Positions 3,813 to 64,000 of a DNA stretch of 64,000 nucleotides are shown piece after piece. The notes beneath the pieces were generated by a model that was given only the letters and a program-made list of their open reading frames with translations, was not told where the DNA came from and ran no database searches. This DNA is from a virus (taxonomy: Duplodnaviria; Caudoviricetes), in the IMG/VR virus record IMGVR_UViG_3300030511_000001, positions 17,634 through 81,633 of that record; one strand, written 5' to 3'. Position 1 is the first letter of the stretch, and the number at the start of each line of letters is the position of its first letter. The translations under genes and the position numbers were made by a program.

Positions 3813-3831
3813 ATTCGACGTGATGTAGAAT
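3813..3831 (+). promoter_or_regulatory. class II 19-bp motif / -10 element
   Basis: ATTCGACGTGATGTAGAAT. Confidence 0.7.
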
Positions 3832-7824: not shown

Positions 7825-8106
7825 ATGGAGGCGGTGCAGGTCTACGTCACCCCCGAGTTTTTTGATGGCACGTGTCCCTATCCGGTCGCGGCGCTGTGGA
7901 TCGATGGTGCGCTGTTCGACACCTACCCGTGCGGCATCGTTCGCAAGCGCGTGAAGTGGCTGCCGCTGTGGCTCCCCTTCAACGCGCGCTACGACTTCTC
8001 CATTTACGCGCAACTCGCGTGCGTGAAGCGGCTGCGTGAGCTCGGCGAGGAACTGCGGACGCACATGCACGGCGCGATTCGTCGTGATGTAGAATGCCAC
8101 GCATGA
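7825..8106 (+). CDS. hypothetical protein
   Basis: SD GAGGAG; fills the gap before the ATPase gene. Confidence 0.55.
   Translation: MEAVQVYVTPEFFDGTCPYPVAALWIDGALFDTYPCGIVRKRVKWLPLWLPFNARYDFSIYAQLACVKRLRELGEELRTHMHGAIRRDVECHA
8077..8095 (+). promoter_or_regulatory. class II motif / promoter of the leaderless ATPase gene
   Basis: ATTCGTCGTGATGTAGAAT, ATG 7 nt downstream. Confidence 0.7.
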
Positions 8107-9902
8107 AAAAGCTGGCGATCGGCGACCCTGAACAGAACGGCGCGACTCTCCCCCTGAAGATGCTCGAGCTCCGAAGCGTGACGCTCGGCAGCTCGGGATC
8201 CGGCAAGACGACCGGCGGCCGCGTGCTCGCCGAGGAGTGTTACGAGCAGGGCGTGCCGTTCGGCGTGATCGACCTCAAAGGCGACTGGTGGGGATTGAAG
8301 TCGAGCGCGGACGGCAAGTCAGCCGGCATCCCGGTCGTCATCTTCGGCGGCGATCATGCGGACCTTCCGCTCGACGAGCGCGGCGGCGCGGCGCTCGCTG
8401 AAATCGTCGTCGACATCCGGCAGCCGTTCATCATCGACCTGGAGAATCTGTCGCGCGCAAAGCAGTGCACGTTCCTCGCTGACTTCTTCGACCGTCTCTA
8501 CGACGTGAACCGCGAACCGCTCGTGCTGTTCTGCGATGAGGTGGACCGATACGCGCCGCAGAAGTCGATGACGGCGGAGGCCATCAAATCGCTCTCGGCG
8601 ACGGAAGACCTTGCGAAGCGCGGCCGCAAGCACGGGATCTTCCCGAAGTTCATCACGCAGCGAAACGCCTCGCTGAACAAGAACGTGGCCGAGCTGTGCG
8701 ACGTGGCGATGGTCTACCGCACCTCCGGGCCGAACGATCAGGAGGCGGTGTCGAATTGGTTCAAGACGAAGGCGACGAAGGACCAGCTCACGAGCGTGAT
8801 GGCCGTCCTCGCCGGCCTCGAGACCGGCACCGCCGTCGTGTGCAGCGCGCATCCGTCCGTGCGCACGTTCGAAACGATCGCGTTCCGCGAGCCCCGCACC
8901 TTCGACTCCTCGGCCACGCCGGAGATCGGCCGCACGGTCATCAAACCGAAGGCGATGGCTTCGGCGGACCTCGACGCGCTGCGCGAGCGCATGGCCGCGA
9001 CGATCGAGCGGATGAAGGAGAACGATCCGAAGGAGCTGCAGCGCCGAGTGAAGGAGCTCGAGGCCGCGGCGAAAAAGGCCGGCGGCATGCCGACCGAACA
9101 GCAGCGCGCTCTCCTCGAGGAAGCCCGCGCCGCCCGCGTGGCGGCTGAGCGAGAAGTTGAGCAGCTACGCGCCAGCATCCGCGACCTGCGCGCGCGACTG
9201 AAGAACATCCGCGCGCACGCGGTGGCAATCGAGGAGGCGTCCGCGCTGGACGGTGAGGAGCCGAAAGCGGCCGCGCCACGCACGTTCTTCCTGAACGAGC
9301 AGCATGAGAGCCGTGGTCGGAAGTCGGCGCCGGCGCCGATCGTCCACAAGATGCCCGCCGCGAAGGTCGTGAAGGCGGCACCGCCGGCGGCGGTCTCGTC
9401 GAACGGTTTCCAGCCGAACGGTTCTCAGCAGCGAGTACTCGACGCGATCGCGTGGTGGGCGTCGATCGGCGTGCCGGAGCCGAGCCGTGCGGCCGTGGGC
9501 TTCGTCGCCAAGATCAAGCCGACCGGCGGCCACTTCAGCAACACCGTTGGACCGCTGAACACGCACGGCCTGACCTTCGCGCCGCGCGACGGCTTCATCG
9601 CGCTCACGCCCGCCGGCGAGGGGCATGCGAATCATCCGGACACGCCGCCGACGCTGGCCGAGTACCACGCCGCCATCCGGTCGATTCTGAAGACGGGCGC
9701 GTCGATCAAGATGTTCGATGCGATCGTCGAGCACGGGCCCGGCGAAATGACCGTGGCCGAGGTGGGCGAGGCCACCAACATCGACCCCACCGGCGGGCAC
9801 TTCAGCAACTCCATCGGCCCGCTCGGCACCCTCGGGATCATCACCCGAGGCGCCGGCATGGTGCGCCCGACCGAGCTGCTGTTCCCGCCGCACCTTTCGT
9901 GA
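8103..9902 (+). CDS. HerA/FtsK-superfamily (DUF87-like) ATPase with coiled coil and tandem C-terminal wHTH repeats
   Basis: Walker A GSSGSGKT, Walker B VLFCDE, RGRKHG and ITQR motifs; repeated PTGGHFSN..GPL. Confidence 0.8.
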   Translation: MKKLAIGDPEQNGATLPLKMLELRSVTLGSSGSGKTTGGRVLAEECYEQGVPFGVIDLKGDWWGLKSSADGKSAGIPVVIFGGDHADLPLDERGGAALAEIVVDIRQPFIIDLENLSRAKQCTFLADFFDRLYDVNREPLVLFCDEVDRYAPQKSMTAEAIKSLSATEDLAKRGRKHGIFPKFITQRNASLNKNVAELCDVAMVYRTSGPNDQEAVSNWFKTKATKDQLTSVMAVLAGLETGTAVVCSAHPSVRTFETIAFREPRTFDSSATPEIGRTVIKPKAMASADLDALRERMAATIERMKENDPKELQRRVKELEAAAKKAGGMPTEQQRALLEEARAARVAAEREVEQLRASIRDLRARLKNIRAHAVAIEEASALDGEEPKAAAPRTFFLNEQHESRGRKSAPAPIVHKMPAAKVVKAAPPAAVSSNGFQPNGSQQRVLDAIAWWASIGVPEPSRAAVGFVAKIKPTGGHFSNTVGPLNTHGLTFAPRDGFIALTPAGEGHANHPDTPPTLAEYHAAIRSILKTGASIKMFDAIVEHGPGEMTVAEVGEATNIDPTGGHFSNSIGPLGTLGIITRGAGMVRPTELLFPPHLS

Positions 9903-51878: not shown

Positions 51879-53387
51879 ATGGAAAATACCGACACGAAGC
51901 CGCGCACGGGCGGCGCGCCGGTGATCGACGTGCCGAGCAGCGCGAGCGTTCCCGCAGTGCGCAACGCACAGCCCGTGCGGCACATCGAACCGGACATGGA
52001 TGCCGAGATCGACGCAAAGCTCGGCCTCATGCCGGAGGTGCCCGAGACGACCGGTCACGAGGTGACGGTCTCGCCGCATTTCAAGATCGCCACACCGTTC
52101 CCAAAAGAGGTGCTGGACGCCCTCCGATTGTTTCGCAATATCCCTGACGAAATGATCGACATAAAACCGAACGGGCAAATCTACCTGAGCAACCGCTTCG
52201 CCTCGGAAATCTTCGACGAGGTGTTCGGGATCGGTGGATGGGGGCTGCTGCCGGGACGGTCGATTACCGAGCGGAAGGTGATGAAGCGCGGCACCACCGC
52301 GGAATACGAAATCATCACCTATTACCAGACGTGGAAGGCGTACGCCTTGGGGCAGTACATTCGCGACGTATCCGGCGCCGGCGTCTACTTCAGCAACAAC
52401 CCGGAGATGAACTTCAGCGACGCCGTCGAGGCCGCGGAGTCGTACGCCATCAACCGCCTCGCGAAGCGCCTGGGCATCGGCCGGAACCTGCGCGATCCGA
52501 TCTTCGCCGCCGAGTGGGTGGCGAAATACGCGTTCGAAGATCCCGCCGTCACGTCGAAGGACAAGTGGAAGAAACGCCCCGCCGCTGGCGGCGTGCCCGT
52601 GCCGCCGTCCGGTTCCCGTTCGTGGACGGCTGCGCTCGTGAAGCTGTTCGTCCCCGTGGTCGGCGAGGATGCCGCGCAGCTCGCCGACGCCCTCGAGAAG
52701 CTGACGACGAAGGCGTGGGGGATCGACCGCGCCTCGCGCTCGTTCCGCGACCTGAAGAATCACGAGAGCTACGAACTGTGCCGACGCATCGCCGCCGGCG
52801 AGCTCGCGGTCCCGACGATCGCACCGAGACGTACCTCCGACGCGAAGCACGCGCAGGAAGTGGCGAAATGGCCGCCCGCGCGCCGAGACGAGTGGCAGTC
52901 CGTGCACGAGGGCGAAGGCGCCGTCCCGTGCACGCAGGCCGGCTGCAAGGCGTGCCGGTGGGACGAGTGGGAGATGGGCGCGCAGGCGAACGTGCAGGTA
53001 GCCGAGGAGCCCGCGGCAACCGAGATGCGCACGCTCAACGATGCCGAAATCGTGAAGGCCATGGGGCCCGCGCCGTCGCCGGAGATTGTCGAGCAGGCGC
53101 GCGACGCTGGCCGACGCGCAGACGCGGAGATCGCCACGTCGAAACCGGTCTGCGGCGAGTGCGCTGGCGAAGGATGCGCGATGTGTGCGCCTGGCGCTGG
53201 CGACGATGAGGACATTCCGGCGACCGGCGATCGCAAGGCCGTCGAAAGCGTGATGATCGGCACACTGTGCCCGAAGCCGGGACATGGCCGCTACACGGGG
53301 CTGTTCTGCCCGCCCTGCGAAGATCCCTCGCTGCTCGACGACGCCGCGGCAGCGTTGCGTGAGGAAACGGAGCGTGAGCAGAAATGA
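51879..53387 (+). CDS. Rad52/Mgm101-like ssDNA annealing protein
   Basis: IKPNGQIYL...F.EVFGIGGWGL...EAAESYAINR.AK.LGIG..L.DP.F. Confidence 0.75.
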   Translation: MENTDTKPRTGGAPVIDVPSSASVPAVRNAQPVRHIEPDMDAEIDAKLGLMPEVPETTGHEVTVSPHFKIATPFPKEVLDALRLFRNIPDEMIDIKPNGQIYLSNRFASEIFDEVFGIGGWGLLPGRSITERKVMKRGTTAEYEIITYYQTWKAYALGQYIRDVSGAGVYFSNNPEMNFSDAVEAAESYAINRLAKRLGIGRNLRDPIFAAEWVAKYAFEDPAVTSKDKWKKRPAAGGVPVPPSGSRSWTAALVKLFVPVVGEDAAQLADALEKLTTKAWGIDRASRSFRDLKNHESYELCRRIAAGELAVPTIAPRRTSDAKHAQEVAKWPPARRDEWQSVHEGEGAVPCTQAGCKACRWDEWEMGAQANVQVAEEPAATEMRTLNDAEIVKAMGPAPSPEIVEQARDAGRRADAEIATSKPVCGECAGEGCAMCAPGAGDDEDIPATGDRKAVESVMIGTLCPKPGHGRYTGLFCPPCEDPSLLDDAAAALREETEREQK

Positions 53388-58840: not shown

Positions 58841-58848
58841 TGTAGAAT
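58830..58848 (+). promoter_or_regulatory. class II motif / promoter
   Basis: ATTCGTCATAGTGTAGAAT, ATG 7 nt downstream. Confidence 0.75.
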
Positions 58849-58855
58849 GGCCGCC

Positions 58856-59566
58856 ATGGTTGTCCGGCCATGGGAACAGCAGCCCCGCCCCCTCACTCGC
58901 GCCGAACGTCACGCCTTGGACGTCGGCGTTACGTTCGATGAAGAGAAGCACCTCTACACGCTGAACGGCCGCCGGCTGCTCGGCGTGACGAAGGTGCTGA
59001 ACCTCGTCGGCTACTACGACTTCAGCAACATCGACCCGATCTATCGTGACCGCGGAAAGGACGCGCACAGCGCCGTGCACTACGCGATGGAGGGTGATCT
59101 CGACCGCGCGCACCTCGAGGCCGCCGCCGAGCGCGGCGCCATGAACCTGATTCCGTACGTCGACGCCGCCGAGAAGTTCGTGCTGGAAAACGACATCGAG
59201 ATCATCCACCCGGAGGCGATCCTGGTGGCGGCGAAGATCGGATTCGCCGGTAAGGCCGACGCCTTCGGATTCGTGCGGAAGCGCCGATCGCTCTGTGTGT
59301 TTGACTGGAAGCTCGGCGATCTGATCGACGCGTACGGCATCCAGCTCGCCGCGTACAAGCTGGCGTGGTGGGAGATGTCGAAGGAGCTCGTCGCTCACCG
59401 CTACTGCGTGAAGCTCCTGCCGGATGGCAACTACAAGGTCCGTGAGTATCCGATGCGCGAGGCCGCGCGCGACGAGCGGCGCTTCCTCGACGCGGTCGGC
59501 GTCGTGAACACGCGGCTGGAACTCGGCACCCTGAAACCTGCCGAGGTGTGGGCGGAGGCGGCGTAA
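58856..59566 (+). CDS. PD-(D/E)XK exonuclease (RecB/Cas4-like)
   Basis: GVTKVL, RG..AH, E, AGKADA, FDWK, QLAAY. Confidence 0.8.
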   Translation: MVVRPWEQQPRPLTRAERHALDVGVTFDEEKHLYTLNGRRLLGVTKVLNLVGYYDFSNIDPIYRDRGKDAHSAVHYAMEGDLDRAHLEAAAERGAMNLIPYVDAAEKFVLENDIEIIHPEAILVAAKIGFAGKADAFGFVRKRRSLCVFDWKLGDLIDAYGIQLAAYKLAWWEMSKELVAHRYCVKLLPDGNYKVREYPMREAARDERRFLDAVGVVNTRLELGTLKPAEVWAEAA

Positions 59567-60692: not shown

Positions 60693-60928
60693 GCGCGCAC
60701 ACCGCTGCGATGCTGTTCATTCTCCGCGAGCACTTCGGCTCCCGGCGTCTGATGCCGGGCTGCCGACATCGGATCGGCGATGCCTTCGAAAACGTGAAGG
60801 TGTCGATCGCACGTGACCGGAACGGCGGCCAGCGATTCCGTTTCCGCTGCCGGAAGTGCTCCAACGCCGGGTCCGCACTCGCCATGCAACGCCTACGCGC
60901 GCGTCTCGCTCGGGCGGTGCCGAGATGA
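60689..60928 (+). CDS. small Zn-ribbon protein
   Basis: GC.H...CRKC. Confidence 0.6.
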   Translation: MSAHTAAMLFILREHFGSRRLMPGCRHRIGDAFENVKVSIARDRNGGQRFRFRCRKCSNAGSALAMQRLRARLARAVPR

Positions 60929-61293
60929 AGTCGCTACTCTCCGCCGCGTTGCGTCTCGTCGATCGAGAGACCGCGCACGAGCCCGAAGCAAACGGGTTTC
61001 AGATCGAGTGCCCCGATGGCCTGATGGTCTATCGCGACGAGACCGGAGCGCCGCTGCCAGGCGTGGAGTTCGACGAGTACGGCACGCCGATCGCCGGCGG
61101 CGAGTTCATTCCTTGCGGGCGGCAGGTCGTTCACAACGGCTGCTGCCCGCGCTGTGGTGGTCGGAGTTGGATTCCCGCAGCTCCCGCCGCGACCTCACCC
61201 ATGGATCTCCGCACGAAGCTCGAGCAGCTACGAAACGAGCGTACGGCCGAAGCGGAGAAAACGGCGGCGTTGATCGCCGCGAAATTCGATTGA
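60925..61293 (+). CDS. hypothetical Zn-ribbon protein
   Basis: C...C...CPRCG. Confidence 0.6.
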   Translation: MKSLLSAALRLVDRETAHEPEANGFQIECPDGLMVYRDETGAPLPGVEFDEYGTPIAGGEFIPCGRQVVHNGCCPRCGGRSWIPAAPAATSPMDLRTKLEQLRNERTAEAEKTAALIAAKFD

Positions 61294-61299
61294 CGAAAG

Positions 61300-61575
61300 G
61301 ACATTCGACGTCACGTGCAACGCTGTGGAAATCTTGCGGATCGACCTGCTGAAAAAGGCTCAACGGACCCGAGCCTGTGTAAATCCTCTTTCCTCTCCGC
61401 ATCTTTTCCGCGCAGTTTTCCGCAGCTACACCGCCCGCCTAACGTCCGCAGTTTCACAGCGTTATACGTGGCGTCGAATGGTTTTCCACAACGGATGCTA
61501 ACCACTACTACCTCTACAAGAGAGAAAGAATCTATTTCTCAGGAGACGGAAGGGACCGTCGCCACTGTGGAAATC
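61300..61575. other. putative oriC-like replication origin
   Basis: DnaA-box-like 9-mers (TTTTCCACA at 61482-61490 plus near matches), trio-like CCACTACTACCTCTAC tract, AT-rich stretch, two class II motifs. Confidence 0.65.
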
Positions 61576-62370
61576 GACCCCTCGCGGCCATGGATGCTCC
61601 TGAAGAATTGCGCCGACTGCGGCACGCCCGTTCTGCTCGTGAAGCGTGGGCGCTTCTGCAAGCTGTGCCGCTTCAAGCCTGGCAACCGGAAACCAGTGAA
61701 TCGGCGGCGGTACATCATCACGCCGGCGATCGAGCAGAAGATCCGCGACGAGTTCGTGCCGAATGAGACGGGGTGCGCCGAGCGTCTGGCGAAGGAGCTC
61801 GGGTGGCATGTCGAATACCTGCGCGGTCGTGCACGCGCGCTCGGCCTGACCCGGCCGGCTTCGCCGTGGACGGCGATCGAGTGCAAGGTACTCGACGAAT
61901 ACGCCGGCAAGCGATCGGCGAAGTGGATCGCCGAGCAGATCAACAGCACCGTGAAGGGCGCAAACCGGAGCCCGTCTCAGGTCGAGGAGAAGATGCGCCG
62001 CATGGGCCTCGAGGTGGCGGTCAAGAGCGGCGACTACAACGCCGCGCAGCTCGCGCAGTGCTTCGGCGTAGCAGGCCACACGGTCGAGACGTGGATCGCG
62101 AAGGAGTGGCTGAAGGCTGAGCGGTCGGAGATCGCCAACGGCATGCGGTTCCCCTGGGTGATTCACGAGGCCGACGTCGTGCGGTTCATCTTCACGCACC
62201 CGCGCGCGTTCGTGCTGCGCAAGGTGGATCAGACTTGGTTTCTCGACATCATGGCCGAGCATGTGCGCGCGGCCGTGGCAGCAGCCGAACAGAAAAAGGT
62301 GGCCTCGCGCAAGGGCCCGCACCGAGCCGTGCGCGTCGATCACACGCGGGAGCGCGCGTGGCTCGCATAA
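61567..62370 (+). CDS. multi-HTH DNA-binding protein (Zn ribbon, Myb-like repeats, MerR/Xis-like HTH)
   Basis: CADC..CKLC; WTAIE.KVL..YAG..S...IA; AQLAQCFGV...TVETWI; start uncertain (61567 or 61594). Confidence 0.7.
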   Translation: MEIDPSRPWMLLKNCADCGTPVLLVKRGRFCKLCRFKPGNRKPVNRRRYIITPAIEQKIRDEFVPNETGCAERLAKELGWHVEYLRGRARALGLTRPASPWTAIECKVLDEYAGKRSAKWIAEQINSTVKGANRSPSQVEEKMRRMGLEVAVKSGDYNAAQLAQCFGVAGHTVETWIAKEWLKAERSEIANGMRFPWVIHEADVVRFIFTHPRAFVLRKVDQTWFLDIMAEHVRAAVAAAEQKKVASRKGPHRAVRVDHTRERAWLA

Positions 62371-62939
62371 ACACGCCGTGCCCGGAGTGCAAGCGCATGT
62401 TCGTCGTCGAGCGCGAGGTGTTCCTCGCGTTGCAGCGTGGCGACGCTGAGGCGCTGGCGCTTACGTGCGGCCGTGCGGACTGCGCCGAACTGGCGCGAGC
62501 TCTCGCTGAAGCGGCGGAAGCGGCGAAGGCAAAGCCGGCGAGGCGGCAGAAGAAGTTCCCGCCCGAACTGCGCGAGCTCGAGGTGCCGGAGAAGGCGATC
62601 CTCTCCGCGTGCCTTCAGTACCTCGCCATCCGCGGCGTGTTCGCCTGGCGCCAGAATCAGGGTGCGATGGAGCAACAGAACCCGCACTATCGACCCGGCT
62701 ACGGGCGCAAGCCGACGCGGAAAATCCGGTTCGCTCACGTCGACGGCATCAGCGATATCATCGGCACTTACAAAGGCCGGTTCCTCGCAATCGAAACGAA
62801 ACGAGTCGGCAAAAAGCCGACCGACGATCAACGTGGTTTCCTCGAGCGCATCGACAAAGAAGGCGGCATCGCGATCGTCGCCTACAGCGTCGACGACGTG
62901 AAGAACGCGCTCGACGAAGTGGATAAGGGGCTCCGATGA
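62358..62939 (+). CDS. VRR-NUC domain nuclease
   Basis: EKAI...L, GISDII, FLAIETK..G.KP..DQ..FL..I. Confidence 0.85.
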   Translation: MARINTPCPECKRMFVVEREVFLALQRGDAEALALTCGRADCAELARALAEAAEAAKAKPARRQKKFPPELRELEVPEKAILSACLQYLAIRGVFAWRQNQGAMEQQNPHYRPGYGRKPTRKIRFAHVDGISDIIGTYKGRFLAIETKRVGKKPTDDQRGFLERIDKEGGIAIVAYSVDDVKNALDEVDKGLR

Positions 62940-63395: not shown

Positions 63396-64000
63396 CCGAC
63401 CTGAGCAAAGACGCAATCCAGCACATTCAGGACACCACGACCGCCGCGAAGCGGCAGGCTCTCATCACGCTCGATGACGGCAGCGGTCGGCGGTTCCTCT
63501 ACAACGACCGCGATCAGAAATACGACCCGGTCGACCCGTGGGTGAAGAAGGCCGACACGGTGTCGAACATCGAATCGTTCATCGATCTTGTGCTCGCCGA
63601 GGCGGCCCGCCGCGACAACGCCACGGGCGAGAAGATGAACGTCATTTTCAGCGACACCGGCGCGGTGCTCATCCCGAACACGGATGACCGTCGCGACCTG
63701 TTCACGTACATCCGCAAGCCGAGCATTCACTGGAAGACGCTGACGGACGGTCTCGACAAGGCAATGCCGCATAAGCAGTTCCTCACGTGGCTCGAGTCGC
63801 TGCGGCCCATCATCGGAATCGACACCGGCACGGCGGACAAGCCACAGTTCGTCTCGCAGTACGCCGAGATCGCCTCGGCGTTCCGCGTGCTCCGTCTTTC
63901 GACGAAGGCGAAGATGCTCTCCGAACCGCTGCTCAACGACGCCGGCACGAAGGGCTCCACGATCGACTTCAAGATCGAGGTTGCCGGAGTCGCCGGCGGC
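63392..64000 (+). CDS. DUF2303 (YfdQ-like) protein, runs off the window edge
   Basis: ESFIDLV...W..L...M..KQF..WLE; follows its usual partner. Confidence 0.65.
   Translation, partial: MTDLSKDAIQHIQDTTTAAKRQALITLDDGSGRRFLYNDRDQKYDPVDPWVKKADTVSNIESFIDLVLAEAARRDNATGEKMNVIFSDTGAVLIPNTDDRRDLFTYIRKPSIHWKTLTDGLDKAMPHKQFLTWLESLRPIIGIDTGTADKPQFVSQYAEIASAFRVLRLSTKAKMLSEPLLNDAGTKGSTIDFKIEVAGVAGG

Follow-up and report, generated by a model that had tools for sequence, protein, structure and literature searches.

A conserved array of DnaA-type boxes adjoining the most meltable DNA of a soil tailed-phage genome: a tentative host-DnaA-dependent origin

A gap between two genes of an uncultured soil tailed phage was found to carry an array of DnaA-type boxes that is real, conserved and cis-acting and that adjoins the most meltable DNA of the genome. 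From the sequence, we tentatively read this gap as a compact, oriC-like phage origin that depends on host DnaA, with DnaA binding predicted at its boxes; we put the probability of this reading at roughly 0.4. Since the phage has no recognisable replication genes, the gap would probably be the place where host DnaA is borrowed to start copying. An earlier note, made from the letters alone, had proposed that the phage initiates like a bacterial chromosome with host DnaA, gated by a phage regulator, or that it titrates host DnaA. The origin part of that proposal is supported by the conserved cluster, its position next to the least stable DNA, the orientation of the boxes and the lack of recognisable initiation genes, but the DnaA-trios, the GC-richness of the spacer and the gating were not supported.

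The phage is represented by a single-contig virus record of 81,633 bp. The window, meaning the whole stretch of DNA that was studied, is its last 64 kb (64,000 nucleotides), and positions are those of the window unless stated otherwise. Genome positions 1-253 and 81381-81633 (window 63748-64000) are the same except for one mismatch, and from this terminal 253-nt overlap the genome is taken to be circularly closed at ~81.4 kb. Its GC content is 67%. Tailed-phage genes for terminase, portal, major head protein, tape measure and fibres are present, and a DNA-modification operon is also encoded. A recombination module consists of an Mgm101/Rad52-type annealing protein (51879-53387), an exonuclease (58847-59566) and a VRR-NUC nuclease (62235-62939). 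The annealing protein has 502 residues with its Mgm101/Rad52-type domain at residues 72-232, and its C-terminal half has no family match and no match among cultured phages. Six-frame HMM searches of the whole genome for lysogeny and plasmid-maintenance genes found neither a tyrosine integrase nor ParB, and comparison with cultured-phage relatives gave no clue to the host.

Attempts to find replication genes were not successful. Six-frame HMM searches of the whole genome, in which the DNA-methylase used as positive control was found, gave no DnaA domain IV, DnaB, DnaC/IstB, DnaD, Prim-Pol, lambda O or family-A polymerase; the lambda-O-type initiator PF04492 had no match in six-frame searches, and no replication gene appeared in PHROG, Pfam and NCBIfam scans of the ~60 predicted proteins. 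The earlier observation that no Rep, helicase-loader or polymerase gene is visible thus holds beyond the window, for the complete genome, by six-frame and protein scans alike. The sole helicase-like gene (8094-9902) encodes a HerA/FtsK-type ATPase with C-terminal winged-helix repeats. This protein is a member of a large, mostly viral cluster without a known role. The ATPase and the many uncharacterised small proteins could include an unrecognised initiator.

The features of the gap and its surroundings are listed in Table 1. The GC content of the gap is 0.52 against 0.67 for the genome. All box sequences of the earlier note were recovered at their positions, including ACGGATG-CTAACCACTACTACCTCTAC at 61491-61517 and the A/T-rich run. 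Between 61294 and 61575 there are one perfect and four one-mismatch boxes, that is, five with at most one mismatch, whereas dinucleotide shuffles of the gap itself gave an expectation of 0.27 +/- 0.52 and reached five in 0 of 1000 cases. The whole genome has 18 such boxes, and every other 282-nt window holds at most one. All three copies of TTTCCACA in the 81-kb genome and four of its six copies of TTTCCRCA lie within the cluster. Chance or base composition as the cause of the cluster is ruled out by the local shuffles together with the genome-wide counts.

Table 1. Features in and around the gap, in window positions; mismatches are to TTWTNCACA.
Feature	Position	Strand	Description
Gap, whole module	61294..61566		~270 bp; between small zinc-ribbon gene (60927-61293) and D5-like regulator gene
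Left inverted-repeat arm	61302..61330	.	pairing to ~61341; holds class II motif 61303-21 with poor -10 (TGCAAC)
Box W1, ATTTCCACA	61324..61332	-	one mismatch; inner end of left inverted-repeat arm
Weak box, CGATCCGCA	61335..61343	-	three mismatches; 2 bp from W1; TCCGCA half-site
Hairpin GGCTC-N9-GAGCC	61357..61375	.	followed by T5 on minus strand (61356-52); terminator-like
Box W2, ATTTACACA	61376..61384	-	one mismatch
Tandem pair W3-W4, TTTTCCGCG-CAG-TTTTCCGCA	61404..61424	+	3 bp between boxes
Box W3, TTTTCCGCG	61404..61412	+	two mismatches
Box W4, TTTTCCGCA	61416..61424	+	one mismatch
Box W5, AGTTTCACA	61450..61458	+	two mismatches; within right inverted-repeat arm
Right inverted-repeat arm	61452..61480	.	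pairing from ~61441; minus-strand class II motif 61479-61461 with -10 TATAAC
Box W6, TTTTCCACA	61482..61490	+	only perfect TTWTNCACA of the genome; 3' end towards AT-rich tract
Conserved core ACGG-ATGCTAACCACTAC-TACCTCTA	61491..61516	+	proposed spacer and trio-like tract
A/T- and purine-rich tract	61515..61541	.	30% GC; candidate unwinding element; likely ribosome-binding region of next gene
Zinc-ribbon + multi-HTH protein gene	61534..62370	+	PHROG 323, "transcriptional regulator, D5-like"
Box W7, ATTTCCACA	61566..61574	-	one mismatch; points back to AT tract

The array consists of 7-8 9-mers of the type TTTTCC(A/G)CA in two outward-facing arrays, with the minus boxes on the left and the plus boxes on the right. 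The best-matching boxes stand at both ends of the cluster and the weaker ones between them; the last box, W7, falls outside the gap, at the 5' end of the downstream D5-like gene, either within the gene or where it starts. About half of the boxes have CCGCA or CCGCG instead of CCACA and so a G at position 7, which is normally invariant in the DnaA-box consensus TTWTNCACA (bioRxiv 10.1101/866236). The repeat motif can be extended to G-W-TTTCCRCA-G, which is longer than a DnaA box. The 9-11-bp boxes and one inverted repeat are the only repeats in the gap, and there are no direct repeats of 17-22 bp. The IHF site WATCAANNNNTTR was not found on either strand in this phage or its relative, and GATC is not enriched.

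Searches of IMG/VR and the JGI metagenomes found as relatives one genome, IMGVR_UViG_3300005337_000019 (G001; 82,990 bp), and one distant locus. G001 was the only full relative compared, so that conservation was judged over two full sequences and one indirect one. It is collinear and circularly permuted, with the break at G000 position ~4952, and shares 65-85% nucleotide identity with this phage in genes; for the proteins on either side of the gap the identity is 39% and 46%. The gap aligns with G001:76880-77160 at ~70-76% nucleotide identity, which is not above that of the neighbouring genes. The order and orientation of the boxes are the same in both phages, (-)(-)(+)(+)(+)[AT tract](-), and the cluster spans 242 nt here and 240 nt in G001. 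Five of the seven TTTCCRCA copies of G001 lie within the homologous 250 bp, two perfect TTTTCCACA among them. The tandem pair TTTTCCGCG-N3-TTTTCCGCA shares 20 of its 21 bases with G001 and measures 12 nt from start to start in both, and the boxes on either side of the AT tract, W6 and W7 in this phage, are 84 nt apart here and 83 nt in G001. Box by box, the W1 site is a perfect TTTTCCACA in G001, the weak box beside it keeps its TCCGCA core, W2 and W7 each have TTTTCCGCA as counterpart, and W6 is identical (G001:77063-71). CCGCA forms make up the majority of the boxes in G001, and at the same box sites A and G are swapped at position 7 between the two phages, which suggests, from the alignment, a reader tolerant of either base there. 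Conservation of the boxes in relatives had been set beforehand as a test of the origin; order, orientation and spacing proved to be kept in the diverged G001.

The conserved blocks of the alignment are the boxes, the core ATGCTAACCACTAC and the purine tract; the intervening hairpins are not conserved. An open reading frame runs through the gap in both phages (window 61315-62370; L006:5689-6699), and gene callers therefore over-extend the ORF. The bases common to the two phages are read in different frames (GFPQRML... vs FSTIHAN...), so selection acts on the DNA and not on a protein, and the gap as coding sequence is ruled out. A third relative is visible through its protein only. This protein, P0004, is 44% identical and comes from a 41.6-kb Logan contig, and its annotated N-terminus is the translation of nearly the same bases as 61459-61539. 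The first ~28 residues of P0004 are thus translated non-coding, origin-like DNA.

By nearest-neighbour stability, 61482-61541 is the least stable stretch of the whole genome at 24, 40 and 60 nt. It begins exactly at the perfect box W6 and runs through the purine/AT tract. In G001 the homologous stretch is the fourth least stable at 60 nt and the eighth at 40 nt. In E. coli the R1 box is oriented towards the unwinding element, as is usual in chromosomal origins; W6 has this same orientation towards the AT tract, and W7 faces the tract from the far side. The basal unwinding system of bacterial origins comprises DnaA boxes, a spacer, DnaA-trios and an AT-rich element (PMC6669920, PMC8287927). The published search rule for trios takes a box with at most two mismatches, a spacer of 0-16 nt (mode 13) and at least three consecutive NAN with the consensus 3'-GAT-5' (PMC8287927). 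W6 has one mismatch to TTATCCACA and points to the unwinding side, the distance from W6 to the first CTA CTA is 14 nt in both phages and so inside the published range, and an AT-rich, easily melted element lies beyond the trio-like tract. A tandem second box 0-3 bp from the proximal box is most frequent but not obligatory; here W6 is separated by 23 bp from the next box upstream (61450-58, two mismatches), and the only 3-bp box pair (61404-24) stands 57 bp upstream of it. After the spacer the bound strand reads GAT GAT GGA GAT in this phage, with only two consecutive trios, and GAT GGT GAT GGT in G001. G001 contains three consecutive NAN only in another register, directly after the box, and this register is not common to the window. 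The DnaA-trio tract claimed in the earlier note therefore fails the published rule, there being fewer than three consecutive trios at the 14-nt spacer in both phages. The spacer fits in length but not in GC-richness, its GC content being 0.50 here and 0.36 in G001, where the sequence (ATTCATG) is not GC-rich.

The AT tract also forms the 5' leader, and probably contains the ribosome-binding region, of the D5-like gene, whose ATG in the relative is at L006:5935. No canonical start is found in this phage where its relatives start, the window having CAG-GAG in place of that ATG. Candidate starts are ATT at 61534, GTG at 61567 and ATG at 61594, of which the ATT is aligned with the first Met of P0003. 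The role of the tract as a gene leader may alone account for its low stability. This double use of the AT tract counts against DnaA, as does the G at position 7 in half the boxes. Also counting against the host-DnaA origin are the failed trio rule, the lack of a tandem box by W6, the missing IHF site, the GATC content, which is not enriched, and the identity of the gap, which does not exceed that of the neighbouring genes.

If the gap is an origin, host DnaA would occupy the strong end boxes first and would then fill the weaker CCGCA boxes cooperatively, melt the AT-rich tract and load the host helicase there. Loading of the host helicase is proposed because no initiator, helicase, loader, primase or polymerase gene could be recognised in the phage. 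Opening may be aided by transcription that reads through from the operon upstream and by the weak leftward promoter that overlaps an end box, and a later switch to the phage recombination genes, that is, the Rad52/Mgm101-type annealing protein, the exonuclease and the VRR-NUC nuclease, is possible. Somewhat less probable than the origin as such is replication in the manner of a minichromosome, in which a self-contained 250-bp oriC-type module would recruit only host DnaA and inward-facing boxes of the W6/W7 type would load the host helicase bidirectionally.

In the E. coli oriC, the peripheral boxes R1 and R4 anchor arrays of weak sites (PMC4980987). The gap is like a bacterial oriC in its cluster of DnaA-consensus 9-mers, with the best at the ends and two opposed arrays, in the end box that points into an AT-rich tract over a 14-nt spacer, and in the lack of a plasmid-type Rep gene. 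Unlike a bacterial oriC, it lies in a tailed-phage genome and not beside dnaA or dnaN, it is ~250 bp long, half of its boxes have the G at position 7, and it has no valid trio array, no tandem box on the unwinding side, no IHF site or GATC enrichment, and an AT tract that is also a gene leader. DnaA boxes are established beside Rep iterons in P1 oriR, F, RK2 oriV and pSC101 (PMC4980987). Like these, the phage is a mobile replicon in which DnaA boxes adjoin an unwinding element and, as proposed here, the helicase and polymerase of the host would be used; unlike it, they have 17-22-bp iterons and an adjacent Rep gene, neither of which was found.

The GC-skew analysis suggested in the earlier note was carried out on the genome. 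The cumulative minimum is at 59211, only ~2 kb from the gap, which favours an origin there, but the curve is noisy and this weak signal carries little weight. The comparison with a host origin was made by scanning genomes for the tandem pair. It gave 12 unrelated matches, which are coding repeats or other intergenic DNA and none of which is at an origin, so that no look-alike of a host oriC was obtained.

The two class II motifs of the earlier note (61303-21 on the plus strand and 61461-79 on the minus strand) are indeed present and make up the outer portions of both arms of a 29-nt inverted repeat, extendable to ~39 nt. Each arm holds one box and a TCCGCA half-site 1-2 bp away from it, and the box pair 61404-24 lies between the arms. 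In G001 the arms of the gap's inverted repeat are CTCGAGCAACGCTGTGG and CCATAGCGTTGCCCGAG; the core common to both phages, TCCGCA-N2-3-TTT(T)CCACAGCGTTGC, is itself made of boxes. The class II motif (19 bp) is the spacer and -10 of a class of promoters, ATTCGTC-N5-G-TAGAAT; it is often preceded by TTGACG or TTGCNN and closely followed by a start codon. There are 18 copies in this phage and 15 with the same consensus in G001; copies are found, for example, at window positions 3813, 8077, 49327, 51841, 58830 and 59605. Of the two copies in the gap, the one on the minus strand has a usable -10, TATAAC, and a -35 zone that overlaps W6, and the one on the plus strand has no usable -10 (TGCAAC). G001 has no class II motif in its gap, and so regulator gating does not belong to the conserved features of the module. 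The idea that class II motifs are gates specific to the origin was therefore discarded: they are of promoter type, occur 18 and 15 times in the two genomes, and are missing from the gap of G001. On these grounds the gating by a phage regulator proposed in the earlier note is not supported. The inverted-repeat core CACAGCGTT (61321-61330 and 61452-61461) resembles the actinobacterial MtrA half-site, GTCACAgcg. This MtrA-like core and the many leaderless genes may hint at an actinobacterial host.

An unlikely, though by no means negligible, alternative to the host-DnaA origin is that the 9-mers serve a phage-encoded DNA-binding protein as iterons or operators. The module would then only resemble DnaA boxes and would be a phage-specific origin or an autoregulated control region. 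The D5-like protein, the HerA-like ATPase with its winged-helix repeats and the highly conserved small proteins nearby are the candidates for such a protein. The swap of A and G at position 7, with the majority of CCGCA forms in G001, would suit it, and so would the motif G-W-TTTCCRCA-G, which exceeds the length of a DnaA box. The layout resembles autoregulation as well, since in both phages the D5-like gene has one box within its 5' end and another just ahead of its leader. Among P0001-P0004 the D5-like protein shows good conservation of its HTH region, and two small proteins nearby, with 86-88% identity between the phages, could read an unchanged site. Against this, an unrelated site would be unlikely to reproduce the 9-bp DnaA consensus without a mismatch, as the best copies do in both phages, and the repeats, at 9-11 bp, fall short of the 17-22 bp of classical iterons. 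The D5-like family comprises 1072 clusters, and in none of 34 other IMG/VR phage loci encoding it were boxes or a repeat array found upstream; the boxes are therefore not the usual operator of that family. As a general D5-like operator they are ruled out by these loci and by a distant homologue without any gap. Neither folds nor families of the Rep type, of winged-helix initiators or of DnaA domain IV were detected. The structural model of the D5-like protein is of moderate quality (pLDDT 68) and gave generic HTH matches and no initiator fold, and a PDB sequence search with this protein found nothing.

It is rather improbable that the boxes bind host DnaA for regulation, titration or tethering and not for the start of phage replication. 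The array could in that case switch the downstream operon (D5-like regulator, nuclease and DNA-modification genes) in response to DnaA, titrate DnaA as a sink, blocking initiation in the host, or be a membrane/DnaA tether as proposed for the injection-stop region of T5. DnaA is a known transcription factor and stimulates lambda pR; here the perfect box overlaps the -35 zone of the minus-strand promoter-type motif, and boxes bracket the leader and the start of the D5-like gene. However, no sigma-70-type rightward promoter was found in the gap, and the leftward promoter is weak (-10 TATAAC) and not conserved in G001. Clusters of DnaA boxes outside oriC are known as datA in E. coli and as DBCs in B. 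subtilis, and datA needs an IHF site. The gap is like them in having about five to seven boxes within 250 bp, but unlike datA it has no IHF site, and the datA and DBC loci do not adjoin an unwinding element. In T5-like phages the iss region contains eight DnaA-type boxes, with pairs 3 bp apart in inverted repeats, and is conserved, non-coding and not an origin; the function of its DnaA boxes is a proposal only (bioRxiv 10.1101/866236). The gap resembles iss as a conserved non-coding phage region with consensus, one-mismatch and two-mismatch boxes, a 3-bp pair and boxes in inverted-repeat arms, and the PHROG family of its neighbouring gene, "D5-like", takes its name from a T5 protein. Unlike this phage, T5 has its own replication genes and its origins elsewhere, and its boxes are in the first-injected terminal repeat. 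A role outside initiation would also leave the present phage without a candidate origin as well as without replication genes, and a box directed into the genome's least stable DNA is a feature specific to origins.

The gap could also act as RNA, either as a hairpin for read-through processing or regulation or as a small minus-strand RNA running from the class II promoter to the hairpin and T5. The plus strand folds at -94 kcal/mol (z = -3.7 against shuffles), mainly by pairing of 61302-45 with 61440-80, and the outer arm sequences differ between the phages, yet are complementary within each. On the minus strand the terminator-like hairpin with its T5 stands ~105 nt downstream of the class II -10 TATAAC, and this unit could be a small antisense RNA. 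This reading is nevertheless very improbable, as there is no Rfam match for the gap, the minus-strand fold is weak (z = -2.0), the conserved parts are short boxes in both orientations and not stems, and the symmetry of the arms follows from their shared core, which itself consists of boxes. The hairpin, the T-run and the -10 are not conserved in G001, and a conserved small RNA or terminator is thereby ruled out.

How large phages without replication genes begin DNA synthesis is mostly unexplained, and no paper was found in the literature on an oriC-type module in a tailed phage that lacks an initiator gene. If the origin reading is true, it would represent a third mode of initiation beside phage-encoded initiators and starts primed by recombination or transcription, and it would tie phage replication to the cell-cycle state of the host through the level of DnaA-ATP. 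The type of box could then help in host prediction, and the gap would be a compact, portable origin in which to test the minimum elements that DnaA needs to open DNA; the conserved CCGCA variants and the two inward-facing boxes, with their fixed spacing of 83-84 bp, offer concrete targets for mutation. The genome scan for the tandem pair also brought up an array of repeats similar to TTTTCCGCAC, with a period of ~12 nt, in a Lachnospiraceae MAG (CACYTU010000035.1; L044:~450-700); another element may have its iterons or DnaA-type sites there.
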